Shown one piece after another: positions 3,872 to 29,313 of a stretch of 30,038 bases of DNA. The DNA lies in the IMG/VR virus record IMGVR_UViG_3300033077_000655, one strand, 5' to 3'. Numbering within the stretch: the first letter of the stretch is position 1; every line of letters starts with the position of its first letter. The DNA is from a virus. Lineage: Duplodnaviria; Heunggongvirae; Uroviricota; Caudoviricetes. The notes below the pieces were generated by a model, which was not told where the DNA came from, searched no databases, and saw only the letters and a program-made list of their open reading frames with translations. Position numbers and translations under genes: made by a program.

Positions 3872-3977
3872 GGTGTTTGTAATCAGAGATCTGTGTACTG
3901 AGATTTCAGAGATCTATGGCATAAGTATTAGACTGTGCTCGAGTATTTCAAAGCGCACAGGTTCTAGTCTCCTGCCA

Positions 3978-14085: not shown

Positions 14086-14088
14086 CGA

Positions 14089-14094
14089 TAAATA
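14089..14094 (+). promoter_or_regulatory. TAAATA late-promoter-like box for the giant protein
   Basis: In a 13-nt intergenic gap, 4 nt before ATG 14099. Confidence 0.6.
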
Positions 14095-14098
14095 AGGC

Positions 14099-17000
14099 AT
14101 GAACTTTCATGACCTTGACAACTACAATCTCGCAGATGCTGTAAAATTCCATCAACGTCTAAACCCCCGTTTGTGGGGTAGAGACGAGCACTTGTTGCCC
14201 GAGGTGCGTGACAAGTTGTTGGCAATAGCAGCAGATTTCCAAGAATTCCTGGGTGTGGATGATCTCAACACCCGGGACATTACCATATCAGGTAGCAATG
14301 CTGCCTATAGCTATACTCCCCATTCTGATATTGATCTACACCTTGTGGTAGACATGCCCGACGATCCTGTGTATCAGGAATTGTTTGCAGCCAAGAAATT
14401 TCAGTATAACCAAGAACATGATATAAAGATTGCCGGAGTTCCGGTGGAACTGTATGTACAGCCTAGTGATCAAAAGCATGTGAGTCAAGGCATTTACAGC
14501 GTGAAGAATGGTGACTGGACACAAGTTCCGCAACGTCGTCGTGCTAGTGTAGATGACTCATGTGTACAGCACAAAACAGCTGATCTTGATGCTAGAATAC
14601 ATTCGGCCATCAAATCAGGTGATGCTGATGCTGTGAATCAGCTGTGGGACAAGATCAAAAACATGCGGCAAACTGGCCTGGAAAAGAATGGCGAATTTGG
14701 TTGCGAGAACATCACATTCAAACTGTTGAGAAATATGGGTTGTATTGGTCAATTAAAAGATGCCAAGACAGCAATACAAGATCGTGAATTAAGTCTAGCA
14801 CGTAAACCGGCGCCCAGAAAGAAGATGAATTATGGCATGCGTGATTACTGGTATCCAGGCACTGCGTATGCTGGCCAAGATCATCCTGCCGGCACTGAAT
14901 CAGAACAAGTGGATGAAAGTGCAGATCCTGATCACTTGAAAAAGATACTGCATCGTTTCTACGCCAGTTGCGTGGATAAGTTGCAGTTAAAGAATCCACC
15001 ACGTTTGCAATTAGAAACAACCACTGACTGGAGTCAAGAGAATGGTAGTTTTGGACAATATGACTCTGACAGCAACACCTTGATCCTGGCCACTTCTGGC
15101 CGTCATGTGCTGGATATACTTCGCACCATGGCACATGAGATGACACATCGCCAGCAGGATGAGCGCAATCCCCTGCCTATAGATGCTGGAGAAACAGGTA
15201 GTCCTTGGGAAGATCAAGCCAACGCCATGGCTGGTCGTATCATGAGAGATTGGGCACAAGAGCAGCCCGATATGTTCGATGGTGTCACACTGGAAGAAGC
15301 GTCAGGCTACATCCCCACAAAGAAGCAGGCTCGAGATCCAAGATTCGTCATGGCCCTGACCCGAGATGTGCGCCCAGGTGCTGTGGGCAAGGAAGCCAAT
15401 AAACTGGGATTACAAACAGATAGCCAAGGCCATCCTGCCCTGCTCACAGCAGGGTTGAACCGACTGTTGCGTGAGTTCAAAGAGCAGGACCTGTTTGAAA
15501 TCAACATGGGTGGCAAGAACCTGCGCAAAGAAGCAGCCAAGACAGGTGCCCTAGCCGGCATGGAGTTTGAGATGATTGTGCCCGACACTTCGTCCGAGGA
15601 TCAAGAACTAGAGCCTGACTTTGACATGGATGAATCAGCCAGCAGTGCCAGCGATATTCGAGACTTTTTCTATGATGGGGACTACAACAGTCGCAGAAGT
15701 ACCCAGGACATGATTGACCAGATAATGGATGATTACAGTAACTGGCAAGTGGAACAGTTTGATACACGTTGGGACCTGGATGCAGAAGAATTTATCTTTC
15801 AGTATATCAAAGACAATATAGATGATGACGACGTCAGACAGATGTTGGATCTGGAAGAGGAAGACCCCATTGGCCGCCAGGAATATCTACTGGTCGCGGA
15901 CATGATTGCTACTGAACAAATGGAACCCTGGTACGAAGATGCCAAGAATGATGCCAGCGATAGTTTCTACGAAGATGACCGTTTTGAAGACTTTCTTCAG
16001 GATAACAACATGGAGCACATGAGTGATATCTATCATCGTTACGATGGCATAATCCATTGGCCACACTACACCAGCGGTGGCGGCGACACCAGCGTTGAAG
16101 ATGTAGCAGATTCATTCAGTGCTGCTGTGGGTCGTCCTGCACAAGCAAGAAGTGATTATCATGCGTATGGTCAAGAGCGTCCAGGTCCTGGCAAGAACTT
16201 TTATGTGGTAGAGCCCGATGGCAGTTTACAGCCTGACGACACCAACGATTCAGGCTTGGAGTTTGTGAGCCCACCCTTGCCCATAGATGACATCATGTCA
16301 GACTTGAAAAAGGTCAAGGCCTGGGCAGACAAAACAGGTTGCTACACCAATGATTCTACTGGCCTGCACATCAACATCTCAGTGCCCAACTATAGCCAGG
16401 ACCAATTGGATTATGTAAAGTTGGCCTTGCTCATGGGCGATGAATATGTGTTGAATAACTTTGGGCGTGCCGGTAACACTTATGCAAAATCTGCAATGGG
16501 CAAGATCAAAGGCAAAGTAACTCCAGAGAATGCCAAACAAATCCTAGATAAAATGAAGTCAGGCCTGGATCAATTGGCTACCAAAGCCATTCATTCAGGT
16601 TACACAGACAAATACACATCAATCAACACCAAGGATGGACACATTGAGTTTCGCAGCCCTGGTGGGGATTGGTTGGATGATAACTTTGACAAGATTGAAA
16701 ACACGCTGATGAGATTCACCGTGGCCATGAGTGCTGCGCTAAATCCCGAAGCGTATAGACAAGAGTATCTCAAGAAGCTGTACAAGATGTTGGCACCCAA
16801 GGGTGAGAATGATCCGCTGGCCATCTTTGCAAAGTATTCAGCCGGTGAGTTGCCTAAGGCTGCACTCAAGAGTTTTGTACGTCAAGCACAGTTAGAGCGT
16901 GGTAACAAAGCAGCCAAGCAAGCTGAACTGGATGTCATGCAAAAAGAACTTACTCCAGCACCTGAAGAATCTAACCAAGGTAACTGGGGTATTTGGCTTG

Positions 17001-20000
17001 GGGCAGCGAATCAATTTTCACGTATGCCCGGGGAATATCCTGCAGGTCAATCTGATACTTTGCGTAGATTCCCCAGCCAGGAAGCTGCCGAACAATTCCT
17101 AGCTCAGACTCGTGCAAGCATTCCAAGAATGCGAACAGATGCGGAAGTTCGTGAAATCCAACCAGCAACTGCACCAGCAGCTATGCAACCTGGTCAATAC
17201 CAATGGCAAATAACCGATGACAATGATCAAGTGGTGTATAGTTTTGTATCATCTACTGCTCAGCGAGATGCCAACGACGTTGCAAGAAACTGGATACAAT
17301 CACAACCACCTTCTATTAGAGCTCGTGGTCCGTTTAATGTGTGGCTGGCACGCTTGGGCGGGCAAGTTCCAGGCAGCACGGTAGATCTACAACGTCAACG
17401 CCAACGAGATGCAGCATCAGCAGCAGCCAGCATGGCAGCAGATGCAGCACCGTCAGCACGTCAGCTGCAACAGATGGCTATGAGCAACGTCACGAATCCT
17501 CCATATTATCCACCACCTACTCCAATTCCTGGTGTGCAAGATATTGATATAGATATCCCTATGGCACAAACACAGTGGGAAGTATACAATAGATCGTCCA
17601 ATCAACCAATATTTGTAATGCAGGCAGCAAATCAAGCAGAAGCATGGCGCAAAGGTCAAGAATGGGTTGCTGCTGCGCAGCAGGCAGATCCAACAGTGGA
17701 TGCTAGTAACTTCTCTGTAAGACCAAGTTCTCAACCAGTTGCTGAAAGTATCACTGTGCTAGAACAACGTCTACGTCAAGAACTAGATGCCTTGGGCAAT
17801 CAAGCACCAACTGGTCCCGAGTCTCCTCCCAAAATGCCTGCAGGCACAATCAAAGTGGATGTGAGTGACATGTACGACTGGTACAAACTGGGGCAACACA
17901 TATCCAATCTCAAAGGCGTGGACAAGAGAACACTAGGAACAGGACCCCCTAGCACTGTTTTTGCGTTTGGTTCTGAAGAGCTGGAAAACAAATACAGTCA
18001 CGAACTCATGAACCTAGGCTTGAAAACACATGACCTAGACGAGCCTGGTGAAGAAGATGTAGATGAAAGCCAAGAAATTACTAAACTTGGTAAACTAGAT
18101 TCAGTTCTAGAACGATGCATTAGCATGATATATCGTGGTCAAGAAACCAATCCTGAAAAGTATGGGCGTGTGGCTGCTTGTTTGATCGATGACAAAAACA
18201 ATCACACCTATGCTATCAACTTGCCCGGACCCAATGGAACACGCCGCCATGCTGAACGTGTGGCCATCGATACACATTTAAAACGCCATGGACGTATTGG
18301 TTCCAATGCCATTATGGTCACCACATTGAGTCCTTGTGTGAATCACATGGCCGAGCGAGATGGTGAAAGCTGCACTGAGTTGTTGAGTGATTATGGTATT
18401 GAGAAATGCTATGCTGGGTGGCAAGACCCCACACAGCAGCCTGCAACAGCATATCCATTCAATTTGCAGGTCACTGATAATGCAGACATTTTTAACACTT
18501 GTCAAAACATAGCAGCCAGTTTCCTACCACAAAACATGACCAACAATTTAGATGAAGCAATCAATCCAGATTGTTTTGATCCAGCATTCAATGACACGCA
18601 AATCTTTGACGGGTTGACTTATCGTGCCACAGTGGAAGAAGAATACGGCAAGCCAGTGCTCACAATCAAGGTTCTTGATGACAACTTTCAGCAAGTGGGT
18701 CTTTCCAAATTCAAACAAAGCAAAAAAGGTGTGGTATCGTTGATCACCAGCTTTCGCCCTGAATATCAAGGGCAAGGTATTGCACGTAACATCTATGCGT
18801 ATGTTAGAATGTTAGGCAACACCATTGTTCCGAGTAAAAATCAGTTGCCACCGGGCAAGGCCATGTGGGCAGCCTGGAAGAAGTCTGGCGATGCCAAACA
18901 TCTAATGAAAGATGTAGCCGAAGCAATCAATCCAGATGTACTTGACCCTAGATTTAATCATAAACAAAAGATTGGTGACTACACATACATCGCAGGATTA
19001 GAACCAGATGAATGGGCGGATGAAGATTTGTTTGTTATCAGATGTTATGACGGTGAGAAGATGATTGGGCAGGCTAGATTCTACACAACATTTGGTGATT
19101 CATTAGTGAGCGCACTGACTACTGTAGAGCCTGAATATCAAAAACAAGGTATTGCAAGTACAATGTATGCGTATGCTAGAATGTTAGGTAATACAATAGA
19201 ACCAAGTGCTTCACAGTTGCCATCTGGTAAAAAAATGTGGAAAGCATGGAAGAAGTCCGGTGATGCCAAACACCTGATGAAAGATGTAGCAGAAGAAGAG
19301 GAACCAACAAGAATCAAGATCAACAATAACGATGCCGCACGAGCATTCATTCAACGAGTTTATGCTCGGTATCCACACACCATGCAGAACAATCATGTGA
19401 TGGTGTGGGGGTCCGGTGACGATCAACAGTTTGCCATGTTTGAATTAATTCCTAGCTTTAGCAAGCGTGGTGCAGTTGAAGTTAAATGGATTCAAGCATA
19501 TCCCTTACGCCAAGGAGTTGGCACACGTGCCATGAAAGAACTACAAGCCATGGCCAGAGAAGATGGCATCAGCTTGACATTGTTTCCCTGGGACAAAGGA
19601 CAAGTGAGTCAGAGCAAACTGACCAAGTTCTATCGTGGACAAGGATTTAAGCCTACTGTTAAAGGTGGTAAAGCAATGCAGTGGGAGCCTATATCTGAAC
19701 GCAAACAATATCCACTAGAAGATTTTGAAGGATTAAAATTCAGAATAGTTGCCGACAGCGGTCAACTGTTTGTGAATGCTCTTGATTCAACCGGAAACAA
19801 TGAGCTAGGCCATGTTACATTCAATATTGACGATAGTAATGGCGTGGATCCACAGGACTTGTTTATCAAAGACAAATTTCGAGGTCAAGGTATTGCCAAA
19901 ATAATGTATGATTTTGTCAAAAGCAAAGGTTACAAAATACAACGAAGTTGGGATCAAACCGATGCAGGTGCAGGTTTTTGGAACAAGCACAAAGGCGACG

Positions 20001-20377
20001 ATGTCCGTGTGTGGGAACAAAAAAATGTAGCCGAAGCAAGGCCTGAGCATCCTACCCATGAGTTTGAAACTGCGTACCATATTACCAGTACTGAAAATGC
20101 AGAAGAAATTCTATATGCTGGTCTAGATCCGTATGATGGCAAAGCATTCATGGTAGTAAACGAAGGTGATAAGGTCAAGCTACAAAGAGAACTAAGTACG
20201 GTTGGTAATTGGATGTACGCCAAGACAGAAGGCAGCGATGATCCATTGACATTGTTGCAAATTGATGTGTCAGGTATTCCATTAACATACGAACACGGAT
20301 GGTACTTTTCCACAACCAAAATCTCTCCTGATCGCATAACGGATTTGGGTGTAAAAGAACTAGCAAGGTATGTATAA
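14099..20377 (+). CDS. 2092-aa polyvalent protein: Pol-beta-type nucleotidyltransferase, HExxH metallopeptidase, amidoligase, Zn-deaminase, four GNATs, ART-like domain
   Basis: GSNAAYSYTPHSDIDLH (~14291); AHEMTH (15134-15148); GMEFE/GLEFVSP/STGLHIN/HIEFRS (~15557-16657); HAE...SPC...C (18248-~18372); four R/QxxGxG/A motifs (18554-~20030); AYHIT...ILYAGL (~20070). Confidence 0.85.
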   Translation: MNFHDLDNYNLADAVKFHQRLNPRLWGRDEHLLPEVRDKLLAIAADFQEFLGVDDLNTRDITISGSNAAYSYTPHSDIDLHLVVDMPDDPVYQELFAAKKFQYNQEHDIKIAGVPVELYVQPSDQKHVSQGIYSVKNGDWTQVPQRRRASVDDSCVQHKTADLDARIHSAIKSGDADAVNQLWDKIKNMRQTGLEKNGEFGCENITFKLLRNMGCIGQLKDAKTAIQDRELSLARKPAPRKKMNYGMRDYWYPGTAYAGQDHPAGTESEQVDESADPDHLKKILHRFYASCVDKLQLKNPPRLQLETTTDWSQENGSFGQYDSDSNTLILATSGRHVLDILRTMAHEMTHRQQDERNPLPIDAGETGSPWEDQANAMAGRIMRDWAQEQPDMFDGVTLEEASGYIPTKKQARDPRFVMALTRDVRPGAVGKEANKLGLQTDSQGHPALLTAGLNRLLREFKEQDLFEINMGGKNLRKEAAKTGALAGMEFEMIVPDTSSEDQELEPDFDMDESASSASDIRDFFYDGDYNSRRSTQDMIDQIMDDYSNWQVEQFDTRWDLDAEEFIFQYIKDNIDDDDVRQMLDLEEEDPIGRQEYLLVADMIATEQMEPWYEDAKNDASDSFYEDDRFEDFLQDNNMEHMSDIYHRYDGIIHWPHYTSGGGDTSVEDVADSFSAAVGRPAQARSDYHAYGQERPGPGKNFYVVEPDGSLQPDDTNDSGLEFVSPPLPIDDIMSDLKKVKAWADKTGCYTNDSTGLHINISVPNYSQDQLDYVKLALLMGDEYVLNNFGRAGNTYAKSAMGKIKGKVTPENAKQILDKMKSGLDQLATKAIHSGYTDKYTSINTKDGHIEFRSPGGDWLDDNFDKIENTLMRFTVAMSAALNPEAYRQEYLKKLYKMLAPKGENDPLAIFAKYSAGELPKAALKSFVRQAQLERGNKAAKQAELDVMQKELTPAPEESNQGNWGIWLGAANQFSRMPGEYPAGQSDTLRRFPSQEAAEQFLAQTRASIPRMRTDAEVREIQPATAPAAMQPGQYQWQITDDNDQVVYSFVSSTAQRDANDVARNWIQSQPPSIRARGPFNVWLARLGGQVPGSTVDLQRQRQRDAASAAASMAADAAPSARQLQQMAMSNVTNPPYYPPPTPIPGVQDIDIDIPMAQTQWEVYNRSSNQPIFVMQAANQAEAWRKGQEWVAAAQQADPTVDASNFSVRPSSQPVAESITVLEQRLRQELDALGNQAPTGPESPPKMPAGTIKVDVSDMYDWYKLGQHISNLKGVDKRTLGTGPPSTVFAFGSEELENKYSHELMNLGLKTHDLDEPGEEDVDESQEITKLGKLDSVLERCISMIYRGQETNPEKYGRVAACLIDDKNNHTYAINLPGPNGTRRHAERVAIDTHLKRHGRIGSNAIMVTTLSPCVNHMAERDGESCTELLSDYGIEKCYAGWQDPTQQPATAYPFNLQVTDNADIFNTCQNIAASFLPQNMTNNLDEAINPDCFDPAFNDTQIFDGLTYRATVEEEYGKPVLTIKVLDDNFQQVGLSKFKQSKKGVVSLITSFRPEYQGQGIARNIYAYVRMLGNTIVPSKNQLPPGKAMWAAWKKSGDAKHLMKDVAEAINPDVLDPRFNHKQKIGDYTYIAGLEPDEWADEDLFVIRCYDGEKMIGQARFYTTFGDSLVSALTTVEPEYQKQGIASTMYAYARMLGNTIEPSASQLPSGKKMWKAWKKSGDAKHLMKDVAEEEEPTRIKINNNDAARAFIQRVYARYPHTMQNNHVMVWGSGDDQQFAMFELIPSFSKRGAVEVKWIQAYPLRQGVGTRAMKELQAMAREDGISLTLFPWDKGQVSQSKLTKFYRGQGFKPTVKGGKAMQWEPISERKQYPLEDFEGLKFRIVADSGQLFVNALDSTGNNELGHVTFNIDDSNGVDPQDLFIKDKFRGQGIAKIMYDFVKSKGYKIQRSWDQTDAGAGFWNKHKGDDVRVWEQKNVAEARPEHPTHEFETAYHITSTENAEEILYAGLDPYDGKAFMVVNEGDKVKLQRELSTVGNWMYAKTEGSDDPLTLLQIDVSGIPLTYEHGWYFSTTKISPDRITDLGVKELARYV
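18554..19291 (+). repeat. Tandem intragenic duplication of a ~122-124-aa GNAT module
   Basis: Both units begin GAAGCAATCAATCCAGA (18554, 18920) and end WKKSGDAKHLMKDVAE; both contain YAY.RMLGNTI.PS..QLP.GK.MW. Confidence 0.85.
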
Positions 20378-21171
20378 TGAGAGCAAATGAATTTGAAGGC
20401 ATTGAAAAACTTCCAGCCGGTGAATATCGTGGTGGAAAAAGTTCATTATTTGTACCTACAAAATTTAAACCTGATTCTATACAGAAGTTGCCGGGCGGCA
20501 GCGGATTTGTATATACTATAGGGCCTGGGCAGTATGGTACAAATATAGAAATTTGGGATCCTAAGGGATCGGACTATATTAATGCAATAACACCGCCGGT
20601 TAGAAAACCTCGAGAGTCTGATGGTGCTTTTAAAGAACGAGTTCAATGGTGGGAATATGCCACTAGACGAGCATTAAATGCTCCAGGCCAATTGATTGGT
20701 AAACTTTCAATTACACCCGCAGATACAAGGATAGGCCAATTTCCGTTAGCCAATGCAGTGAGAGTTGATACTATCACAGTAGACGAGGATTATCGTGGCC
20801 GGGGCATTGCTAAAGCATTATACGGTATTGTATTAACTATTATGCAAGTGCCATTGGTAGCCGGCAATACGCAAACTCCTGGTGGACGTAGAAATTGGGT
20901 TAGCCTTGCTAGTATACCCGGCGTTGAGATAAAAGGGTATGTTGGGTTAGAAACTTATGATCTAAATTCTCGTAATATTGATACAGTCATGGGTCAATTG
21001 GGTGGTGAACATCTTGGCCGAGCCAAAGATGGAGACGCGTTTTTTACATTTGATGTACAACCTAGCACAACTGGACAAGAATTAGAAGCTTATGTCAAAA
21101 CTTATTTGCGTAAAATATACGGCAAAGGCCAATACAATTCTGGCCTGTATGCAACCTGGAGTGGCACATGA
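20377..21171 (+). CDS. GNAT acetyltransferase-domain protein with N-terminal MRANEF tag
   Basis: VDTITVDEDYRGRGIAKALY (motif A) and GNTQTPGGRRNW; TAATG coupling. Confidence 0.75.
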   Translation: MRANEFEGIEKLPAGEYRGGKSSLFVPTKFKPDSIQKLPGGSGFVYTIGPGQYGTNIEIWDPKGSDYINAITPPVRKPRESDGAFKERVQWWEYATRRALNAPGQLIGKLSITPADTRIGQFPLANAVRVDTITVDEDYRGRGIAKALYGIVLTIMQVPLVAGNTQTPGGRRNWVSLASIPGVEIKGYVGLETYDLNSRNIDTVMGQLGGEHLGRAKDGDAFFTFDVQPSTTGQELEAYVKTYLRKIYGKGQYNSGLYATWSGT

Positions 21172-22082
21172 GAGCAACGGAATTCTTAATTGAAAGAGCA
21201 ACTGATATATTGTTTCATTACACTGGTATCAGAGCCGGATTGAAGATACTGCAATCAGGTAACTTTGAACTGGCCAGCGTGACTGGTACCCGCAGTGAAG
21301 AACAATACGCACCGCCAGGCTATCCGTACTTTCTCAGTCTAACACGAACCATAACTGGTGACTATCATCGCTGGGTGGGATCAGGTGCTGTGATGTTCAA
21401 ACTCAATGGTGACTGGTTTAACTCTCGCTATATTGTAAAACCCATTGACTATTGGGAACGTGCATGGTTGCACAGCAATGGCACAAGAACAAGAGAATCA
21501 GAAGATCGTGTGTTCAGCAAAGACCCTACTATCCCAATCACTCCTGTGACTGAAGTTCATGTGTTGCTGAAAGAACAAAATGAATATCGCAGTCCAGAAA
21601 CACGACAGATTTTAATCACAGCCAAACAGCAAGGCTTGCCTGTGTTTTTTTACACAGACGAAGCTGCATGGCGATTGTTGGACAAGCGCAAGGCACAGAA
21701 ACCTGCACAAGCTCGTGAAGTGCTGCGTGGTCCGCAACCTGCTGGAAATTCTCGCAAGTCCACAGACTATGTGAAGCCTTGGATAGAGTTGATTACCAAG
21801 AACGACGAAGCACATCTAAGTGAACGAGCCAAACGTGCATTAAGGACCATGCGGTACTATGGTAATGCGTACGAGGATCAAAATCTCAGTGTGGATCTCA
21901 GCAATGCTCGCAAGCCGGATTCCGGAGACCGTGCCAGTGCAGTTTGGATAATTAAGTACATGCAGGACAATAATTTTAAATCCACACTGGAATTGAAGAA
22001 TGCCATCTCAGACAAATGGGAAGCCATCTACAAAGCCAAGCAACCGGTTGCAAAACCTGTAACACCGGGTGAACCTGTATGA
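21168..22082 (+). CDS. Putative ADP-ribosyltransferase-fold protein with MRATEFLIE tag
   Basis: LFHYT...LKIL, FLSLTR and RESEDR follow the H/R...S...ExE order of ART folds (inference). Confidence 0.5.
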   Translation: MRATEFLIERATDILFHYTGIRAGLKILQSGNFELASVTGTRSEEQYAPPGYPYFLSLTRTITGDYHRWVGSGAVMFKLNGDWFNSRYIVKPIDYWERAWLHSNGTRTRESEDRVFSKDPTIPITPVTEVHVLLKEQNEYRSPETRQILITAKQQGLPVFFYTDEAAWRLLDKRKAQKPAQAREVLRGPQPAGNSRKSTDYVKPWIELITKNDEAHLSERAKRALRTMRYYGNAYEDQNLSVDLSNARKPDSGDRASAVWIIKYMQDNNFKSTLELKNAISDKWEAIYKAKQPVAKPVTPGEPV

Positions 22083-22273
22083 GAGCCGCAGAATTTGTAA
22101 TCGATGAAAACTTTGCTGACGGTCGGAATCCCCAAGACAAGGGCGATAGCAAGCGGCATGGCATTCCAAAACATACCACATTGTCACAGTTAGATAAGAT
22201 AGGCCATGGATCGGGGCGTAAAGCACAGTTAGCCAGATGGCAGGCGAATATGAGACGAGGTCGTGCTAAATAA
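22079..22273 (+). CDS. Small basic protein with MRAAEFVIDE tag
   Basis: ATGA coupling; R/K-rich after the tag. Confidence 0.75.
   Translation: MRAAEFVIDENFADGRNPQDKGDSKRHGIPKHTTLSQLDKIGHGSGRKAQLARWQANMRRGRAK
22267..22272 (+). promoter_or_regulatory. TAAATA late-promoter-like box for the homing endonuclease
   Basis: Overlaps the last codon and stop of the upstream gene; 8 nt before ATG 22281. Confidence 0.55.
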
Positions 22274-22280
22274 TGCTATC

Positions 22281-22856
22281 ATGGCACAAGTTTACCTCAT
22301 CACAAATACTTTGAACAACAAACAATACATCGGTGTAACTAATAATTCATTACAAGAGAGATGGAAAAGCCATTTGTATGATAACAATGTTATCAGCAAA
22401 GCAATCAAAAAATATGGCAAGGAACATTTTTCTATAGAAGCAATACACGAGTGCGACACAATGGATGAAGCATACCTCCTTGAACCCAAATTCATCATTG
22501 AGCATAATACCAAATACCCAAACGGATACAATGTATCATCGGGTGGCAAAGGATCTCAAGTTGGCAAAAGAAAACCAACCCCTGAACATGTCAAACAGAA
22601 AATAAGAGAATCTATAAAGAAAAATCATTATTGGAATAACTTATCTGAGGAACAAAAAGAGAAATGTAGAGAAAGTTGGAGAGCAAACAATCAATCTCGC
22701 ATAGGACAAAAACGCGGTTCGTATAATAGTGGATTGTTCAAAAAAACTGTGTGGATCAACAACGGCAAACAAAGAAAAAGAGTTCCTGAGTCCAACATAA
22801 ACGATTGGGTATCAAACGGCTGGATGCGCGGGCACAAGAACGGAATCTCAAAATGA
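22281..22856 (+). mobile_element. Free-standing GIY-YIG homing endonuclease gene (Seg-like) with a NUMOD-type basic C-terminus
   Basis: VYLITN...QYIGVT, ERW..H, LLEPKFI, GYN...GG, KRKPTPEHVKQKIRES (NUMOD3-like), VWINNGK...GWMRG. Start set to ATG 22281. Confidence 0.85.
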
Positions 22857-23386
22857 AACTTTTAGAATTCAGTCCTCTCACACTTCACGGTAGTTTTGAA
22901 CGTGGACTGATCTTGAACAAACTGTGGCTGATCCACGAACTTCAAAAGATTCAAGATCAGTTCAGCACAATTTACATCCTGGGTGCATGGTACGGAAACA
23001 TGAGCATACTGTTGTCCAAGAGTGGAATTGAATACAATCACATTGTGAATGTAGATCAAGATGTCAGTGTAAACCGTGAGTCAAAGCGCATAGGCCGCAT
23101 GTTGAATATTGATAACATTGAATATATGGCCAAGGACGCTAATCGTTTGAACTATCAGCAACTGGATAAAGATGGACTAGTAATCAATACCAGCTGTCAT
23201 GACATGGAAAATCGCGGCTGGTTTGATCACATACCTGCAGGAGTCATGGTAGCACTGCAAAGCAGAGATGATGTGGATGATGATCTCGACAATTATGATC
23301 TCGGGCAAACACTTTATCAAGGATCAAGATCAGCTCGAGATCCCGAAACACACTATCAAAGTCTATTACGCATTGGGGTTAAATAA
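22853..23386 (+). CDS. Putative class I SAM-dependent methyltransferase-fold protein (MKLLEF start)
   Basis: Start re-assigned to ATG 22853 (ATGA overlap). IYILGAWYG motif I, VNVDQD motif II, VINTSC. Confidence 0.55.
   Translation: MKLLEFSPLTLHGSFERGLILNKLWLIHELQKIQDQFSTIYILGAWYGNMSILLSKSGIEYNHIVNVDQDVSVNRESKRIGRMLNIDNIEYMAKDANRLNYQQLDKDGLVINTSCHDMENRGWFDHIPAGVMVALQSRDDVDDDLDNYDLGQTLYQGSRSARDPETHYQSLLRIGVK
23380..23385 (+). promoter_or_regulatory. TAAATA late-promoter-like box
   Basis: 5 nt before ATG 23391; overlaps the upstream stop. Confidence 0.6.
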
Positions 23387-23390
23387 GCAT

Positions 23391-23819
23391 ATGAGAAACT
23401 TTATCAGACTTGTTGAAGCAATGGAAAAAGGTTGCCCGGTGGCCACACATGACATTGAACTCAATCTCAAGAATCGTCAAGCAGCCATTGACAATTATCA
23501 CTATGGTCCAGCAAATCCGTTAGAGCCAGGTGACTATTGGAAAAAGGCTGCTGACCGTTGGGCTGTGCCAGAAAAAATAGTCAAGACCATGAAATGTGGC
23601 AACTGTGCTGCGTTTGATGCCAGTGATTCAATGCGAAAGTGTATTGAGTCCGGAATCCGAGGTGATGAATCACATGCAGATGCTGCTGCCACAATAAATC
23701 TCAGTGACCTGGGCTACTGTAACTTCTTGCACTTCAAATGTGCCGGTACCAGGACCTGTGCGGCCTGGGTAGTGGGTGGACCTATTACTGAAAAAGATCG
23801 CGGAAAGAAGGTGATGTAA
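23391..23819 (+). CDS. Cys-rich hypothetical protein (MRNFIRLVE start)
   Basis: Start re-assigned to ATG 23391 after the TAAATA box. CGNC...C...GYC...HFKC...TC pattern. Confidence 0.75.
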   Translation: MRNFIRLVEAMEKGCPVATHDIELNLKNRQAAIDNYHYGPANPLEPGDYWKKAADRWAVPEKIVKTMKCGNCAAFDASDSMRKCIESGIRGDESHADAAATINLSDLGYCNFLHFKCAGTRTCAAWVVGGPITEKDRGKKVM

Positions 23820-24521
23820 ATGAAATCAAGTGAATTCATAACAGAACACCAGCAGCAGTTGGAAGAAAATCTACACCAGTGGTTCAAAGACAAATGGGTG
23901 AGATTTGGGCCCGACGGTAAGATTCGCGGTGACTGTGCTCGTGGAAGTGAATCTGAAGGCAAGCCCAAGTGTTTGCCACAGGCCAAGGCTCATGCACTGG
24001 GCAAGAAAGGGCGGGCGTCAGCAGCAGCAAGAAAGCGCAGACAGGATCCCGATGCTGATCGACGCGGTTCTGCCATCAATGTGGCCACTAAGAAAAAAAC
24101 AAACGAACAACGTTGTCCGCATTGTGGTGGCCCACTGATGGAATACGATGATCTGATGGAAAAGAAAGATGCCTGCTACTACAAAGTCAAGGCTAGTGCA
24201 AAAGTATGGCCTAGTGCTTATGCATCGGGGCGGTTGGTTCAGTGTCGTAAAAAAGGTGCAGGCAACTATGGCAACAAGTCAGAAAGTGCTGTGACTGAGT
24301 CCAACACATTATCGCCAGGTGCTGTGAGAAAGATACAACAGGTGCTGAACAAAAAATACAATGCCAATCTAGATGTGGATGGTGTGCTAGGCACCCTTAC
24401 TCGCCAATCTATTGAAAAATACATGCCATCAGCACATCAACAACCGGCGCCAGATTCCGATCGCACTACTCGTGTGCAAGGATTCAATGCCAAAGACAAT
24501 GATCACAGAAAGGTGAACTAA
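23820..24521 (+). CDS. Modular basic protein with MKSSEFITE tag and a C-terminal peptidoglycan-binding-like motif
   Basis: Basic Cys-containing modules separated by E-containing linkers; VRKIQQVL...LDVDGVLGTLTRQSI resembles PG_binding_1. Confidence 0.75.
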   Translation: MKSSEFITEHQQQLEENLHQWFKDKWVRFGPDGKIRGDCARGSESEGKPKCLPQAKAHALGKKGRASAAARKRRQDPDADRRGSAINVATKKKTNEQRCPHCGGPLMEYDDLMEKKDACYYKVKASAKVWPSAYASGRLVQCRKKGAGNYGNKSESAVTESNTLSPGAVRKIQQVLNKKYNANLDVDGVLGTLTRQSIEKYMPSAHQQPAPDSDRTTRVQGFNAKDNDHRKVN

Positions 24522-25316
24522 ATGAAATCAAGTGAATTTATAACTGAAAGCATGCGACGCTTGGAAGAAAAGTGGAGTCAAAAATACAAAAGCAGTATCA
24601 ACTGCTCTCATCCAAAAGGCTTTAGTCAACGTGCTCATTGTGCCGGTAAAAAGAAACACAACGAATCAGTTGAGATGGAAATGGTGTGTGAAATGTGTGG
24701 CATGTGTGAAACACACGGCAACATCATGGAAATCAAGACAGGTGCCACGGACTCAAATGGTGTGACCAAATGCTGGCCGAACAAACATGCAGAAGGCACA
24801 AAGAAGTCAGCTGTAACTGGCAAGCAGGTAAGAAACTGTGTGCCCAATGAAAGCATCGACGAAGCAGGATCACCGGCACAACAAGCAGCCATTGCTATTG
24901 CTATGAAAAAAGCCGGCAAGAAACCCAAAAGTTTAGACGAACAGTTTGACATGATTGAAGAAATGGTCGAACAACTGGCTGAAGCACATGGTGTTGATTC
25001 AGAACAAATTTGGGAAGATTTTGAAGCTGTGGATGATCATGAACTGTTGGAAACAGCAGCGTGGCGACGAAGTGCAGGCAAGAGCAAAAAAGGCGGGCTC
25101 AATGCCAAAGGTGTGGCCAGTTACCGGAGAGAGAATCCCGGCTCAAAATTACAGATGGCTGTGACCACCAAGCCCTCAAAACTCAAGCCTGGATCAAAAG
25201 CAGCCAAGCGTCGTAAAAGTTTCTGTGCCAGGATGGGAGGAGTCAAGGGCCCAATGAAGAAGCCCAATGGCAAACCCACACGCAAGGCATTAGCGTTGAG
25301 GAAATGGAACTGCTAA
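24522..25316 (+). CDS. Modular basic protein with MKSSEFITE tag
   Basis: Modules KWSQKYKSSINC..HC, CWP...NCVP, an acidic helix, and AAWRRSAGK...SFCARMGG...LRKWNC, separated by [ILV]-x-E linkers. Confidence 0.8.
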   Translation: MKSSEFITESMRRLEEKWSQKYKSSINCSHPKGFSQRAHCAGKKKHNESVEMEMVCEMCGMCETHGNIMEIKTGATDSNGVTKCWPNKHAEGTKKSAVTGKQVRNCVPNESIDEAGSPAQQAAIAIAMKKAGKKPKSLDEQFDMIEEMVEQLAEAHGVDSEQIWEDFEAVDDHELLETAAWRRSAGKSKKGGLNAKGVASYRRENPGSKLQMAVTTKPSKLKPGSKAAKRRKSFCARMGGVKGPMKKPNGKPTRKALALRKWNC

Positions 25317-25519
25317 TGAGAGCACAAGAATTCTTAACTGAAGAATTACTTACAGGATTCCATGTGTATGGTGCGTCCGTGCGTGTTAAAAATCCTTCGT
25401 ATACCACCAGTATAGATGTGGCCATATTTGCCAAGTCACCGGCTATGGCTCGATTGTTGCTGCAAGCTCAATACGGCAAAGACAGCATAGTTACCAATGT
25501 ACATAGGATAGACGAATGA
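25316..25519 (+). CDS. Small protein with MRAQEFLTEE tag
   Basis: Start re-assigned to ATG 25316 (TAATG coupling). Confidence 0.7.
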   Translation: MRAQEFLTEELLTGFHVYGASVRVKNPSYTTSIDVAIFAKSPAMARLLLQAQYGKDSIVTNVHRIDE

Positions 25520-25995
25520 GAGCCACTGAATTCATCGCTGAACTAAAGATAGACAACCGACAAGGGCTGGGGGCGGTGCCACACAATGCTGATGTGCATT
25601 ACTTTGGTCTAAACGTAGTAATGCGTCCCAGCATGTTCTTAAAGTTGAGTTTGCCTTTGGACAAGAACTCACCAGACGAACAAAAAACTATACAGCAATT
25701 GAAACAACAGATCAATGATCCTGGGTTTGGTGCGCCGTTCTTAACTGTAGTAGTGCCCGAAGCTTGGGAAAACAATGACTTTGGTCTAGAAGCCAAGGTG
25801 CGTGGTCATGACGGACGTCACAGAATGTATGCTATCATAGACGAGGAAGGTGACGATCCTGTGGAGGTTCATATTTTCATATCACACTTTCGTCGCAGAG
25901 ACATCACAGATGGTATCATCAAGAATCTACGCAATGGCATATTGAGTCAAAATGGACAGTATGTAAGTGGTCCTATATTTGGGGATGCCAAATGA
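25516..25995 (+). CDS. ParB/Sulfiredoxin-like domain protein with MRATEFIAE tag
   Basis: PFLTV...VRGHDGRHRMYAI resembles the ParB/Srx DGxHR motif. Confidence 0.55.
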   Translation: MRATEFIAELKIDNRQGLGAVPHNADVHYFGLNVVMRPSMFLKLSLPLDKNSPDEQKTIQQLKQQINDPGFGAPFLTVVVPEAWENNDFGLEAKVRGHDGRHRMYAIIDEEGDDPVEVHIFISHFRRRDITDGIIKNLRNGILSQNGQYVSGPIFGDAK

Positions 25996-26195
25996 GAGCA
26001 AGAGAATTCACACGTAAGAAAAAACCTGAATCGCAAGAACTAGATGAACTTACGTTTTTAGGGTCGCCCTGCACCAAGGATTGTTCCGGCCACAGGGCTG
26101 GGTATTCGTGGTCAAAAGCCCGTGGTAATCGTACTGCAATGAGTCACAGCAACAGTTTTAACAATGGCGCAAGATTGGCGTCACAGGGCAAATAG
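25992..26195 (+). CDS. Small protein with MRAREF tag
   Basis: ATGA coupling; FLGSPCTKDCSGHRAGYSWS module after LDE. Confidence 0.7.
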   Translation: MRAREFTRKKKPESQELDELTFLGSPCTKDCSGHRAGYSWSKARGNRTAMSHSNSFNNGARLASQGK

Positions 26196-26197
26196 AA

Positions 26198-26203
26198 TAA
26201 ATA
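26198..26203 (+). promoter_or_regulatory. TAAATA late-promoter-like box
   Basis: Intergenic; followed by an AAAGGAA RBS and ATG 26234. Confidence 0.55.
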
Positions 26204-26233
26204 AAGCATAGATCATTCATAAAGGAACATCAC

Positions 26234-27088
26234 ATGAGATCAACAGAATTTATCCAAGAAGCAGGACCCGGCGCTCCAGGTTTTGCACAAACTCCTGCTC
26301 AACTAGCAGCACGAGCTGCACAAGGTGAAAAGAATGCACAAGGAATTAAAAATTTCTTTGCCGGAGCACCACAAACTGGTGCTGCCAGCAACATGGCCAA
26401 GGATCCAGCACAACAAGCTGGCCAAGGTTTACCGGCGCCAGTGAATTCGATGGACGACAGCGACGATTTTTATGCTAACCCATTTGTGGCACCAGCAGCA
26501 CCGGTACAGGTGGGCACAGGAGTAGCACCGCCATCACCGCCAGATGGTATAGGAGTAGCACCTCCCACTCAAACCTCCACACCGGTACCTAAGAAAACGT
26601 TTACACCAGATCCAGCTGGTGTGGCAATTGCACAGCAATTAAAGATGGATTCTAACGCAATTAAATTATTCCAAAGAAATCAAGGCTTGACTCCAGACGG
26701 ACGAATTGGTCCTCAAACAACAGCGGCATTGAAGGCAGCACAATTGAAACAAGGCAACGTAGCTGCCAACGACAAAGGTGGTGCAAGAGGTGGTGCTGCA
26801 TTTGCGGCCACAGATCCACGCAGAACTGATGCTGCGGGCGGCGGCCAAACTGGATATAATTCACCACCATTTGCAGCACCAGCTGGTATAGGAGTAGCGC
26901 CACCGGCAGGAGCACGTCCACCAGCTGGTATAGGAGTAGCGCCACCAGCACCACGTGGCGGGAACCTGCGCAACCCAAATGCCGAAAATTTATTATCCAC
27001 AACTGAATCTAAACAACGTAATAAGTTAACAAATTTTGAAGAAAGCGTGGATCGCATGCGTCGGTTGTCAAACATGTTAAAAGGGTAG
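26234..27088 (+). CDS. Pro/Ala/Gly-rich protein with a peptidoglycan-binding domain and MRSTEFIQE tag
   Basis: IKLFQRNQGLTPDGRIGPQTTAAL is the PG_binding_1 signature; four G[TI]GVAPP repeats. Confidence 0.75.
   Translation: MRSTEFIQEAGPGAPGFAQTPAQLAARAAQGEKNAQGIKNFFAGAPQTGAASNMAKDPAQQAGQGLPAPVNSMDDSDDFYANPFVAPAAPVQVGTGVAPPSPPDGIGVAPPTQTSTPVPKKTFTPDPAGVAIAQQLKMDSNAIKLFQRNQGLTPDGRIGPQTTAALKAAQLKQGNVAANDKGGARGGAAFAATDPRRTDAAGGGQTGYNSPPFAAPAGIGVAPPAGARPPAGIGVAPPAPRGGNLRNPNAENLLSTTESKQRNKLTNFEESVDRMRRLSNMLKG
26879..26946 (+). repeat. 26-nt exact direct repeat, period 42 nt (encodes PAGIGVAPP)
   Basis: CCAGCTGGTATAGGAGTAGCGCCACC at 26879 and 26921; degenerate copies at 26513 and 26546. Confidence 0.85.
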
Positions 27089-27089
27089 C

Positions 27090-27869
27090 ATGAAGTTATT
27101 TGAGTTCTTGTCAGAAGCCACCAGCTCAAGCAATATCTATACCGTGAAATCCGGGGATTCCTTGCCAAGCATAGCAACGGCCAATGACACAACTGTGGAT
27201 GGCATCATGTGGCAAAATCCGGAGTTTGCTAGTGCTAGCGATATTGTGTTAGGATCTCGGATACGGTTGCCTGACACTAATGTACCTGGAACAGGATCGG
27301 GTGCCAGAGCATCAACAGGCGCTGTGAAACCCACAACAGCAAGACCACGTTCGATGAAAACGGCAAATCCAGTAGCATCCGGACTGACCAAAGAACAAAT
27401 GGCATTGTTGAACATGATTGCTGCCAGAGAAAGTGGTGGCGATTATAATATCATAAACTACAAAGCTCAAAATCTGATTGATGCCGGAAGATTAAACACC
27501 TCCGGGGGGCCTGGAGAACATCCTTTTGCATATGGTTACAAGGTAGATGGTCAAGACGTACCAGGAAAAGAGAAATATACAGCAGCTGGTAGATATCAGA
27601 TGGTGTGGACTACTTGGAAAGAAGCTGCGGCACTAGCCGGCGTAGATCCAAAAGATTTTTCACCGGCCAATCAGGATCTAGCAGCATTGGCTCTAGCACA
27701 ACAATCTTACAAAAAGAAATTTGGAGGTGATTTGAATACAGTATTGACTGACCCTTCAAAGGCAAGCCAAGTAGTAGCTGGACTTACACCTTGGAGTGTA
27801 CAAGCCGGAGGCCCGGGCTTCACTCCTCAGAATTATACTGCTGCATTGTCGGCTACAAAAACAGCATAA
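27090..27869 (+). CDS. LysM plus lambda-lysozyme-like muramidase/transglycosylase with MKLFEFLSE tag
   Basis: YTVKSGDSLPSIA (LysM); LLNMIAARESGGDY, AAGRYQM...TW and DFSPANQDLAA (lambda R-like). Confidence 0.8.
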   Translation: MKLFEFLSEATSSSNIYTVKSGDSLPSIATANDTTVDGIMWQNPEFASASDIVLGSRIRLPDTNVPGTGSGARASTGAVKPTTARPRSMKTANPVASGLTKEQMALLNMIAARESGGDYNIINYKAQNLIDAGRLNTSGGPGEHPFAYGYKVDGQDVPGKEKYTAAGRYQMVWTTWKEAAALAGVDPKDFSPANQDLAALALAQQSYKKKFGGDLNTVLTDPSKASQVVAGLTPWSVQAGGPGFTPQNYTAALSATKTA

Positions 27870-27901
27870 CACACCAAATAAATTTTAGAAAATAAATTAT
27901 C

Positions 27902-28228
27902 ATGTCTGCAACAATAACTTGGACCGTAACCAAAATGAACTGCTACCCAACAGCAGAGGGACAACCCAACGTGGTGTTTGAAGTTTACTGGATTTGTAGT
28001 GGTGTGCAAGACACCTACAGCAACTATGTGGCTGCTGTGAGCGCCTGCAATATTCCTTTGTCAACTACGTCTTTTACACCTTACGCTGATCTAACACAAG
28101 CACAAGTGCTTGGCTGGATCTGGGCCAATGGTGTTGATCAGTCTGCTGTAGAACTACAAGTACAAGCCTTGATTGACGTACAAATCAATCCTCCAGTGGT
28201 AATACTTCCACTGCCCTGGGCAGCATAA
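27902..28228 (+). CDS. Hypothetical phage protein (no tag)
   Basis: 108-aa ORF after a short AT-rich gap; ITWTV...YW.C...FTPYADLT..QVLGWIW...LPW. Confidence 0.75.
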   Translation: MSATITWTVTKMNCYPTAEGQPNVVFEVYWICSGVQDTYSNYVAAVSACNIPLSTTSFTPYADLTQAQVLGWIWANGVDQSAVELQVQALIDVQINPPVVILPLPWAA

Positions 28229-28230
28229 TC

Positions 28231-28827
28231 ATGAGACTATACGAATTCTTTGACCGACCACGCGAAGGCATGGGATTCTTGGGTGAAAAGAATGTTGAAG
28301 AAGGCGACTTAGACAAATTTAAAAAGTACACCAGACCAGTGGTAAAAACCAAGCCAAAGATTGAAAGAACAACCAATCCTGCTGGCAGAACAAATGACCA
28401 TGTTGAATGGAAAGTTACAACGCCCACTGGCGAGATTCACAGATACAAATCTAAAAAACAAGCGCAAGAACATTTTGATTCTTTTGGTTCTCAAGGTGTA
28501 GCAGAAGTCGCCCCTCCAGGAGCCAAGGCCGAACGCATGGTCCGGCATATTAAACAGGGCTATGCCAAAGATGGCAAGTTGACTCCAAAGGAAAAAGGCA
28601 TCGCTTTTGCCACAGCATGGAAAGCACACAATGCCGGCCAGGTGGAAGAGCAAGGTGTCACAGAAGGCTCCGAGTCTGGTCCAGTTGAAGCATATGGTTA
28701 TAGATACAACAACCGAGATCAACGCATAGTGTGGCGTAAAATTTTCCCGAGTGGAGAAGCTGCTTATGCCTGGGCAGACAGAAATAATGCCACAGTATTA
28801 GGCACCCGCTCAACAGAACAAAGATGA
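28231..28827 (+). CDS. Modular protein with MRLYEFF tag
   Basis: Short modules separated by NVEEG, GVAEV and GVTEG linkers. Confidence 0.75.
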   Translation: MRLYEFFDRPREGMGFLGEKNVEEGDLDKFKKYTRPVVKTKPKIERTTNPAGRTNDHVEWKVTTPTGEIHRYKSKKQAQEHFDSFGSQGVAEVAPPGAKAERMVRHIKQGYAKDGKLTPKEKGIAFATAWKAHNAGQVEEQGVTEGSESGPVEAYGYRYNNRDQRIVWRKIFPSGEAAYAWADRNNATVLGTRSTEQR

Positions 28828-29126
28828 CTTCACAATTTGTGTTGGTCAAAGCTGATGTTTCAATAAACTGGGACGGTGCGGCACCCAATTATAGATTGTA
28901 TGTGGGTGGTGAATTGTTTGCTGATCGTACATATATTTGGCAGGAACAGTATCTAGAAGAACTGATCCAAATTTATGCACCACCTGGAGATTATGAGCTG
29001 CATTGGGAATTGGTTCCGTCAACAGCAGGTGAAATAACTGTGACTAATGTACGAATTGATGATGGCCAAGTGGGATCACGTATAGTAAATAATTCAGTAT
29101 TAAGGATCGAACATGAAAGTACATGA
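28824..29126 (+). CDS. Hypothetical protein
   Basis: ATGA coupling; 100 aa. Confidence 0.7.
   Translation: MTSQFVLVKADVSINWDGAAPNYRLYVGGELFADRTYIWQEQYLEELIQIYAPPGDYELHWELVPSTAGEITVTNVRIDDGQVGSRIVNNSVLRIEHEST
29086..29091 (+). promoter_or_regulatory. Possible internal TAAATA box upstream of the 29113 gene
   Basis: Followed by an AAGGA RBS and ATG 29113. It lies inside a CDS, so it may be chance. Confidence 0.35.
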
Positions 29127-29313
29127 AATAATGGAAGATGCAAGTGGCACAGGCTCAGGATCTGTGGCTGTGATGGTTCAACCCATGGGTACACAAACAA
29201 GACAAGGCGGTTCTATGCTGAGTGGTAAATACACAACGGACCTAACGCCTAATACGCCCAAGGAATACAAAAGGAACAAGCAGTCCCGAGCTAAGTTTCA
29301 GAACAGTCGATAA
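29113..29313 (+). CDS. Small protein with a tag-like start (MKVHEIME)
   Basis: AAGGA RBS; G/S-rich then basic. Confidence 0.6.
   Translation: MKVHEIMEDASGTGSGSVAVMVQPMGTQTRQGGSMLSGKYTTDLTPNTPKEYKRNKQSRAKFQNSR

Follow-up and report, generated by a model that had tools for sequence, protein, structure and literature searches.

A short N-terminal tag resembling the T4 capsid-targeting sequence heads an array of unrelated genes in an uncultivated jumbo phage

The IMG/VR virus record IMGVR_UViG_3300033077_000655 is a linear contig of 125,567 bases with a G+C content of 42%, and its CheckV completeness of 36% points to a genome size of about 350 kb. It is a fragment of an uncultivated jumbo phage of a T4-related clade. 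The window analysed here is the first 30 kb of this contig (30,038 nucleotides), in which nearly all genes lie on the plus strand and abut or overlap. From position 20377 to position 29313, a chain of genes for unrelated proteins shares a short N-terminal sequence, hereafter the tag, with the consensus MRAxEF[ILV]xE and the broader form M-R/K-A/S-x-E-F-I/L/V-x-E. Sequence comparisons described below suggest that the 13–14 tags are probably capsid-targeting sequences (CTSs) of the bacteriophage T4 type that are removed by a head protease, and that the genes behind them encode head cargo.

The tagged genes and their products

All fourteen N-termini listed in the first-pass annotation of this DNA are found at their positions. 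The starts at 22853, 23391 and 25316 are not the first start codons of their respective open reading frames (ORFs) and, as elsewhere in the chain, lie at, or a few bases past, the stop codon of the preceding gene. All tagged genes are on the plus strand. The first (20377..21171, 264 aa) starts with MRANEFEGIE, lacks a canonical (I/L/V)-x-E at residues 7–9 and encodes a GNAT, as previously annotated and now supported by a Pfam match. The second (21168..22082, 304 aa; MRATEFLIE followed by R) encodes a protein with a probable ADP-ribosyltransferase (ART) fold of the DarT/Tpt1-like type. Its AF2 model has a pLDDT of 85.8 with residues 1–7 disordered, DarT and Tpt1 are the top Foldseek matches (E 3e-4, TM 0.34/0.49), and H17, Y18, E110 and E112 are invariant in 36 sequences; the DarT-like fold agrees with the earlier ART-like call, and Pfam and PHROG searches give no match. 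The third gene (22079..22273) encodes a 64-aa basic peptide starting with MRAAEFVIDE, after whose final E the body always starts with NF. The fourth (22853..23386, 177 aa) starts with MKLLEF and has no canonical cut site near the tag; its annotation as methyltransferase-like survives as a lead only. The fifth (23391..23819, 142 aa) is loosely tagged by MRNFIRLVE followed by A, and its homologues begin with MMYRKYIRIVE or MRDLINLME.

The sixth and seventh genes carry the identical tag MKSSEFITE. The sixth (23820..24521, 233 aa; next residue H) consists of small basic Cys modules with a weak PG_binding_1 match, and the seventh (24522..25316, 264 aa; next residue S) has a C-terminal DUF6321. A 67-aa protein starting with MRAQEFLTE followed by E is encoded at 25316..25519, and the ninth gene (25516..25995, 159 aa) starts with MRATEFIAE followed by L. 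The AF2 model of the ninth product has a pLDDT of 80 with residues 1–25 disordered, and H98, G100, R101 and R103 are invariant. Its Foldseek list is led by Srx, PadC, Noc and ParB, all at E ≥0.05 and none at E ≤0.001, so that the earlier ParB-like assignment is reduced to weak ParB/sulfiredoxin-like fold matches. Both AF2 models show the tag as an extension of low confidence that lies outside the fold. The tenth gene (25992..26195, 67 aa) starts with MRAREF, and its product may have a 19-residue propeptide, MRAREFTRKKKPESQELDE followed by L, as in T4 internal protein (IP) I. The next two products accord with the muralytic functions expected by the first-pass annotation: the eleventh (26234..27088, 284 aa; MRSTEFIQE followed by A) has a PG_binding_1 domain in Pfam, and the twelfth (27090..27869, 259 aa; MKLFEFLSE followed by A) has a LysM domain in Pfam and an endolysin-like region (phrog_90, E = 3e-13), its orthologues in relatives being annotated as Phage_lysozyme2 in precomputed annotation. 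The thirteenth gene (28231..28827, 198 aa) starts with MRLYEFF and contains internal QGVAE and QGVTE linker motifs, and the fourteenth (29113..29313, 66 aa), loosely tagged by MKVHEIME followed by D, encodes a small protein kept across the clade. Apart from the enzymes and cell-wall proteins, the tagged products are small and mostly basic. Pfam (E ≤1) and PHROG searches find nothing for 22853, 23391, 25516 and most of 28231, and Atlas feature searches provide leads only (PARP/DarT 0.88, methyltransferase 0.87–0.93, ParB_N 0.93).

Searching all six frames of the complete contig for ^M[RK]..E[FI], starting at an ATG with at least 40 codons to follow, yields 14 matches. Thirteen lie on the plus strand in the chain at 20377–29313, and the remaining one is a spurious match in an antisense ORF inside a 2092-aa gene. 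Amino-acid frequencies predict 0.05 occurrences among 192 genes, compared with the 13 observed. The motif is absent from the genes at 1–14 kb, as the first-pass annotation maintained, and from all 177 genes of the contig outside the array, and a looser pattern finds no further real genes in the rest of the contig. EF[ILVM]xE occurs seven times at residue 5 of array genes but three times in about 40,800 other residues. An all-against-all BLASTP search with the bodies (residue 13 to the end) finds nothing below E = 0.87, in line with the claim that the genes are unrelated, and paralogy as the origin of the common start is rejected on this ground. Beyond the contig, a DNA-pattern scan of IMG/VR for MRAxEF[LIVFM]xE finds at least 120 contigs, 141 of the 143 matches listed head an ORF of at least 40 codons, and the bodies are very diverse. 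The probability that the tag reflects chance, or recent duplication of one gene start, is therefore negligible: nothing but the identical tags of 23820 and 24522 speaks for it, and the counts within the contig, the unrelated bodies and the hundreds of tagged proteins encoded by these contigs already refute it.

Five large tag-bearing contigs of 259–525 kb (G001–G005), of which four are at least 98% complete and one 73%, were analysed as relatives. The tag pattern, with R or K at position 2, occurs 3–6 times per genome, and a reversed control pattern does not occur. The window alone has seven strict copies against these 3–6, which were counted with the pattern that allows either residue; for the clade, this is a rather large array.

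The junction rule and the T4-type head genes of the relatives

The CTS of the T4 internal proteins IPI, IPII and IPIII was described by Mullaney and Black (1996) and is reviewed in PMC9026906 and PMC3012670. In the T4 record, ipII and ipIII start with MKTYQEFIAE followed by A, ipI with MKTFKEF...ITE followed by A, alt with MELITE followed by L, and gp24 with MAKINELLRE followed by S. The likeness to this sequence proposed in the first-pass annotation is seen at the F, the I/L and the terminal E. Like the T4 CTS, the tag is a short N-terminal peptide common to otherwise unrelated proteins and ends in (L/I)-x-E, the consensus of the prohead-protease site. MRATEFIAE, MKSSEFITE, MRSTEFIQE, MRAQEFLTE and MKLFEFLSE have E-F-(I/L)-x-E in common with it, and the core E-F-I-x-E is identical in T4 MKTYQEFIAE and MRATEFIAE here. 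Truncation and suppressor studies of the T4 CTS have assigned targeting chiefly to residues 4 and 7, and processing to residues 8 and 10 (PMC9026906), and the counterparts of Phe7, Ile8 and Glu10 are conserved in the tag. In contrast to the T4 CTS, the tag has 9 residues rather than 10, starts with M-R-A rather than M-K-T and has no Tyr4. The array also contains 13–14 tagged genes as compared with the three internal proteins of T4; much of its putative cargo is made up of enzymes and cell-wall-binding proteins, not just of small inhibitor proteins; and its genes abut or overlap without intergenic elements.

T4 Alt is an ART that is packaged, injected and processed by gp21 (PMC5512222). Alt is an ART-fold enzyme and the product of gene 21168 a probable ART-fold protein, and the short N-terminal propeptide of Alt ends in I-T-E as the tag of gene 21168 ends in L-I-E. 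No sequence relation between the two proteins was found, and the product of gene 21168 resembles DarT and Tpt1 rather than the R-S-E Alt clade.

The sequence (I/L/V)-x-E is present at residues 7–10 in 10 of the 14 tags of the window. The same signature marks the boundary between tag and body in homologues. Of the best 120 among 472 homologues of gene 21168, 117 extend far enough upstream for the junction to be read, and every one of them shows Glu at P1 and L/I/V/F at P3 directly before the conserved body. In 13 of these 117, an extra module lies between the N-terminal tag and the body, so that the upstream sequence is unrelated, and the junction is still L-x-E. In the ParB-like family of gene 25516, each of 91 homologues has E at P1 and I/L/V at P3, and the junction is internal in about nine of them, for example ...QIVNE followed by LKINN. 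The rule thus holds in 208 of 208 homologues of the two families, including about 20 internal junctions. By estimate, a random tripeptide has a chance of about 2% of matching the rule, and so the internal junctions by themselves argue strongly for a functional site at that very position. The T4 gp23 site (...FLTE followed by AEIGG) aligns with ...LLAE followed by SS and ...YLKE followed by NAS in the capsid proteins of the relatives, suggesting that the protease of the relatives probably has the same preference for a hydrophobic P3 and a P1 Glu as that of T4.

Processing after Glu is also known in the phiKZ-like giant phages 201phi2-1, phiKZ and SPN3US, in which many head and ejection proteins are cleaved C-terminal to Glu, at (S/A/G)-x-E, by a gp21-related protease, with redundant sites in the propeptides (PMC5694885). 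There, however, P3 is small (A/S/G) rather than hydrophobic as here, the propeptides mostly have at least 100 residues, and a common short tag is not described in that paper.

In another reading, the tag is solely a propeptide that the head protease cuts off and that holds the enzymes inactive before maturation; targeting would then come from elsewhere, such as the bodies or co-assembly with the polyvalent protein. The cut site is the best-conserved feature across families, modules inside polyproteins have the site and not MRAxEF, and the T4 Tyr4 determinant is not conserved. However, M-R-A-x-E-F is conserved far beyond the need of a three-residue site and is confined to true N-termini, the corresponding residue in T4, Phe7, is a determinant of targeting and not of processing (PMC9026906), and unrelated bodies cannot share a body-borne signal. 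A purely propeptide function is therefore unlikely.

The relatives encode T4-type head proteins. A Peptidase_S77 of the T4 gp21 family (E 1e-24 to 1e-29) and a Gp23-type major capsid protein (E about 1e-99) are present in all five of G001–G005, whose ClpA-like protein is 62–71% identical to that of the window. In G001, the one relative examined for gene order, where the Peptidase_S77 gene lies at 195584-196210, the genes for the portal, a small protein, an acidic protein, the protease, a scaffold-sized protein and the capsid protein follow one another as do T4 genes 20-67-68-21-22-23. Homologous protease and capsid genes in the relatives, together with a gene in the scaffold position and a hypervariable locus, are further likenesses to the T4 system; the syntenic locus is kept among relatives and the tagged set varies. 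Among 29 partial tag-bearing contigs, Peptidase_S77 is found in five, compared with about 8.8 expected from estimated completeness. A predicted complex of the G001 gp21-type protease with a tagged 124-aa protein of G001 has a score of 0.00 with the partner poorly folded, and speaks neither for nor against binding.

Three further observations concern these head genes and tags. The gp23-type capsid gene of G001 (G001:C1:193248-194465, L126) is interrupted by one in-frame TAA inside the Pfam match, giving two ORFs of 301 and 89 aa, which could reflect a sequencing error, an intron- or intein-like insertion, or recoding. At G001:C1:155437-159291, two genes starting with MKTFAQYLIE and MKTLKDYLTE adjoin two MRAxEF-tagged genes, and this tag variant is nearer to T4 MKTYQEFIAE in length and start. 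Finally, the body of gene 29113 after the tag, D/N-A-S-x-G-(S/T)-rich ... V-x-V-Q-P-M-G, resembles the predicted mature N-terminus of the clade's capsid protein, E followed by NASAGSTSAGNIA...VGVQPMTG (L127–L129 and G001), and the product may imitate the capsid N-arm or be a piece of it.

Cassette exchange and the common pool of modules

Three close relatives, L163, L167 and L169, share 72–98% nucleotide identity with the window over common stretches, mostly 80–92% in shared array genes. A frame comprising the genes for the polyvalent protein, the ART, DUF6321, the ParB-like protein, a 67-aa protein, the PG-binding protein, the LysM-lysozyme and Dps is kept in all three. Around this frame, the window and the three relatives differ by whole cassettes, which supports the exchange part of the plug-and-play system envisaged in the first-pass annotation. 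The GNAT gene (20377) is absent from its slot in all three and sits in L167 at the slot of the 67-aa gene 25316 of the window; gene 25316 itself forms a cassette indel relative to L163 with the crossover within the tag. The block 22079–24521 is absent from L163 and L167, and L169 has three other tagged genes. The ART protein encoded at 6659-7753 in L163, 7034-8128 in L167 and 10001-11095 in L169 has 364 aa and is C-terminally fused to the body of window gene 22079, so that the pair 21168/22079 is, on this comparison, a gene fission or fusion with the tag exactly at the junction.

The breakpoints are narrow. Similarity to one window gene stops 8–26 nt into the tag, and similarity to the next starts at the ATG of that tag; the L163 tag MRANEFLIE combines the 5' half of the window 20377 tag with the 3' half of the 21168 tag. 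Of 42 similarity ends in the 20.3–29.4 kb region, 17 lie between −5 and +27 nt relative to a tag start, positions that make up 5% of the region (binomial P 7e-12, for ends that in part depend on one another); these ends are spread over nine different tags. As judged from these alignments, the tag-coding DNA is the crossover point for gain, loss and movement of cassettes. The tagged, injected set also differs between close relatives in the hyperplastic IP loci of T-even phages, where the signal sequence has served to recognise ip genes (Repoila et al. 1994, as cited in PMC2839356 and PMC12373910). Exchange there is, however, ascribed to intergenic promoter/stem-loop elements (PeSL; Arbiol et al. 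2010), whereas the crossovers here lie inside the tag-coding sequence.

Such crossovers would also be expected if the tag were mainly a DNA or RNA element, that is, a recombination handle like integron attC and/or a context for translation initiation or coupling, whose peptide has no sorting role. The Arg2 codon is AGA in 9 of 9 tags compared with 22% of Arg codons genome-wide, stop and start codons frequently overlap as ATGA or TAATG, and most upstream regions lack a Shine-Dalgarno sequence. On the other hand, the peptide is kept while synonymous sites vary: Ala is encoded by GCA or GCC (GCT and GCG in relatives), Phe by TTT or TTC, Glu by GAA or GAG, Ile by ATA, ATC or ATT, and Leu by TTA, TTG or CTT. 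This variation indicates that the peptide is also under selection, and a purely nucleotide-level signal is rejected as the main explanation. In addition, the rule of a hydrophobic P3 and a P1 Glu applies at the roughly 20 internal junctions, at which the DNA bears no relation to that of the tag, and the conserved residues are those important in the T4 CTS (PMC9026906). It is thus distinctly improbable that the tag acts mainly as a DNA or RNA element, and a role at this level and a role of the peptide do not exclude each other. An EcoRI site, GAATTC, is present in 8 of 12 window tags, the relatives having mostly GAATTT.

In other contigs, the bodies of the tagged genes are found again, some directly after a tag and others embedded in longer proteins after linkers such as QGVAE, ILE or LTE. 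The module WSQKYKSSINCSHP follows MKSSEFITE in the window and ...SVAE inside a 552-aa polyprotein in G001. In G003, the three modules of gene 23820 are divided among genes that each have a tag of their own, and modules of gene 24522 are also found inside polyproteins of G001 and T4-like cyanophages. A 901-aa protein encoded right after the window contains ten linkers of the QGVAE type. Modules inside polyproteins carry the putative cut site and lack the MRAxEF part. The third format is the 2092-aa polyvalent protein encoded directly upstream of the array (14099..20377, plus strand), which is untagged and contains amidoligase, deaminase and several GNAT domains according to Pfam. Its modules (the zincin/amidoligase region, the deaminase and the GNATs) occur elsewhere as standalone genes headed by MRAKEFIIE, MKLREF, MRANEF, MRAIEFL or MRASEFITE, and by this sequence evidence the polyvalent protein draws on the same cargo pool as the tagged genes.

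Polyvalent proteins of phages and conjugative elements have been described by Iyer, Burroughs, Anand, de Souza and Aravind (2017, PMC5512222), who predicted their packaging in the virion and delivery with the DNA. The 2092-aa protein is one of these, and the cargo domains of the present system match theirs (GNAT, ART, ParB-like, amidoligase, deaminase and lysozyme). In contrast to the proteins described there, the domains here are also found as standalone proteins behind a CTS-like tag, and their junctions carry a putative T4-type head-protease site, whereas PMC5512222 proposes processing by the MPTase domains of the polyvalent proteins themselves. A search of a library of open-access papers found none linking CTS/gp21 processing with polyvalent proteins.

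Proteins of 816–840 aa composed of the same small basic Cys-containing modules (DUF5872-like, WSxKYKxSI and DUF6321), separated by VKE|G- or LME|G-type sites, are encoded by L159 (Synechococcus phage ACG-2014f gp129) and L160 (S-SCSM2R_176), one beside an NMNAT gene and the other beside a terminase gene. Both are candidates for internal-protein polyproteins, and they occur in cultured phages whose virion proteomes have been published.

Expression, setting and probable role of the tag

The T4 late promoter has the sequence TATAAATA. An ATAAATA motif of this type at 14088..14094 (plus strand) ends 4 nt 5' of the ATG of the polyvalent gene, which heads the gene chain, and the motif precedes the orthologue of this gene in 7 of 8 relatives (in one as TAAATA only) with diverged flanks. 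A second ATAAATA at 26197..26203 (plus strand), 31 nt upstream of gene 26234, is kept in L163, L167 and L169 as in the window. In G001, ATAAATA precedes the gp67-like gene and the close variant TAAATATA precedes the portal gene. These motifs would fit late co-expression of the putative cargo array with the head genes. ATAAATA also ends 4–5 nt before the ATG of several long ORFs, at 3977, 5148, 11117 and 14088 in the window, at 92991 in the G000 contig and before the portal and 72-aa genes of G001, so that a T4-type late transcript that begins a few bases further on would be leaderless or nearly so. In L167, a NUMOD3 endonuclease gene lies just upstream of the polyvalent gene, and the ATAAATA motif is lost there.

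Several genes within and around the array are untagged. A GIY-YIG homing endonuclease gene (22284..22856, plus strand; Pfam PF01541, E = 3e-13) lies inside the array and is absent from L163, L167 and L169. A DUF7936 gene identified by Pfam (27902..28228, plus strand) also lies within it, and a 100-aa gene (28824..29126, plus strand) is kept in relatives; right after the latter comes a Dps/ferritin gene found by Pfam. About 10 kb upstream of the array, a ClpA-like ATPase gene (8195-10480) is kept in all relatives examined, and beside it lies a DnaJ-like gene (7374-8147) with an N-terminal J-domain motif read by eye. In the 525-kb relative G002, the whole locus is present in two diverged copies (G002:C1:800-40800 and 151100-191100), each spanning the ClpA-like gene, the NMNAT and polyvalent genes and the Dps gene. 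A megablast search with 14–30 kb of the window finds no match in cultured phages, and a tBLASTn search with the NMNAT finds distant matches only; no close cultured relative is known.

A chaperone role of the ClpA-like and DnaJ-like proteins in loading or unfolding of cargo is conceivable. These genes also bear on a further explanation, according to which the tag directs proteins elsewhere than to the head interior, namely to the tail or ejection apparatus, the periplasm, or the phage ClpA/DnaJ-type chaperones encoded 10 kb upstream. The ClpA-like gene lies upstream of the array in all five relatives and the DnaJ-like protein is encoded in the window, and three cargo proteins have cell-wall domains (27090, 26234 and, as a weak match, 23820). 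However, the tag is acidic and amphipathic without a hydrophobic core or signal-peptidase site, and it closely matches a signal of known destination in a phage with homologous head genes. Muralytic domains are also present in other internal or ejected phage proteins, such as T7 gp16. A destination other than the head interior is accordingly very unlikely.

Taken as T4-type CTSs, the tags would hold the proteins on the scaffolding core during prohead assembly, and a gp21-type prohead protease would cut after the Glu of the terminal (I/L/V)-x-E, freeing the mature proteins inside the head, from which they would leave with the DNA at infection. The putative cargo would comprise the GNAT, the DarT-like ART-fold protein, the ParB/Srx-like protein, the LysM/lysozyme and peptidoglycan-binding proteins and small basic Cys-rich peptides. 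The same modules would also be delivered as QGVAE-linked polyproteins and as giant polyvalent proteins following the same junction rule, and the tag-coding DNA, repeated at each gene head, would double as the crossover point of the cassettes.

Several points weigh against this interpretation. Profile searches of the window's own contig with PF03420 (protease) and PF07068 (capsid) find neither gene, and there is no scaffold gene either; this is expected of a fragment, and the connection to a gp21-type protease comes from the relatives. The tags of 20377, 22853, 25992 and 28231 are without (I/L/V)-x-E at residues 7–10 and would need a later cut site or stay uncut. The tag is one residue shorter than the T4 CTS, with no conserved counterpart of the targeting determinant Tyr4, and the junction statistics for N-terminal tags are partly inherited and not independent. 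The AGA bias and the frequent overlap of starts with the preceding stop as ATGA suggest that part of the conservation may be at the level of nucleotides, translation or recombination. Cargo with LysM/lysozyme and PG-binding domains must do its work in the periplasm, and a location in the tail or ejectosome would fit this too. With these points taken into account, it still appears probable that the tags are T4-type CTSs removed by the head protease and that the tagged genes encode head cargo. More tentatively, and with somewhat less than even confidence, the tag may be three elements in one, a prohead-core address, a protease site and a DNA recombination repeat, which together would produce an integron-like expandable arsenal whose modules are shuffled among the three formats.

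The principle is known from T4 and T-even phages, and the claim in the first-pass annotation of a sequence rule for finding injected effectors is overstated: according to PMC12373910 and PMC2839356, internal proteins of T-even phages have been recognised by their signal sequence since 1994, with more than 30 IP variants. What is new is the enzyme-rich cargo, a junction rule common to linker polyproteins, polyvalent proteins and tagged genes that stand alone, and the location of the crossovers in the tag DNA. The finding connects two literatures that have been treated separately, those on the T4 CTS/gp21 system and on polyvalent proteins, and nearly identical genomes show the arsenal rebuilt cassette by cassette. 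All three tagged proteins of T4 inhibit type IV restriction enzymes (PMC12373910). Should the tag act here as it does in T4, nine residues would suffice to identify proteins that a large clade of uncultivated phages of roughly 350 kb injects ahead of gene expression, and the tagged proteins would be prime candidates for counter-defence and host take-over. If the tag is indeed address, protease site and recombination repeat in one, polyvalent proteins of T4-related phages would gain a concrete mechanism of packaging and processing, and metagenomics would gain a simple rule for listing injected proteins.

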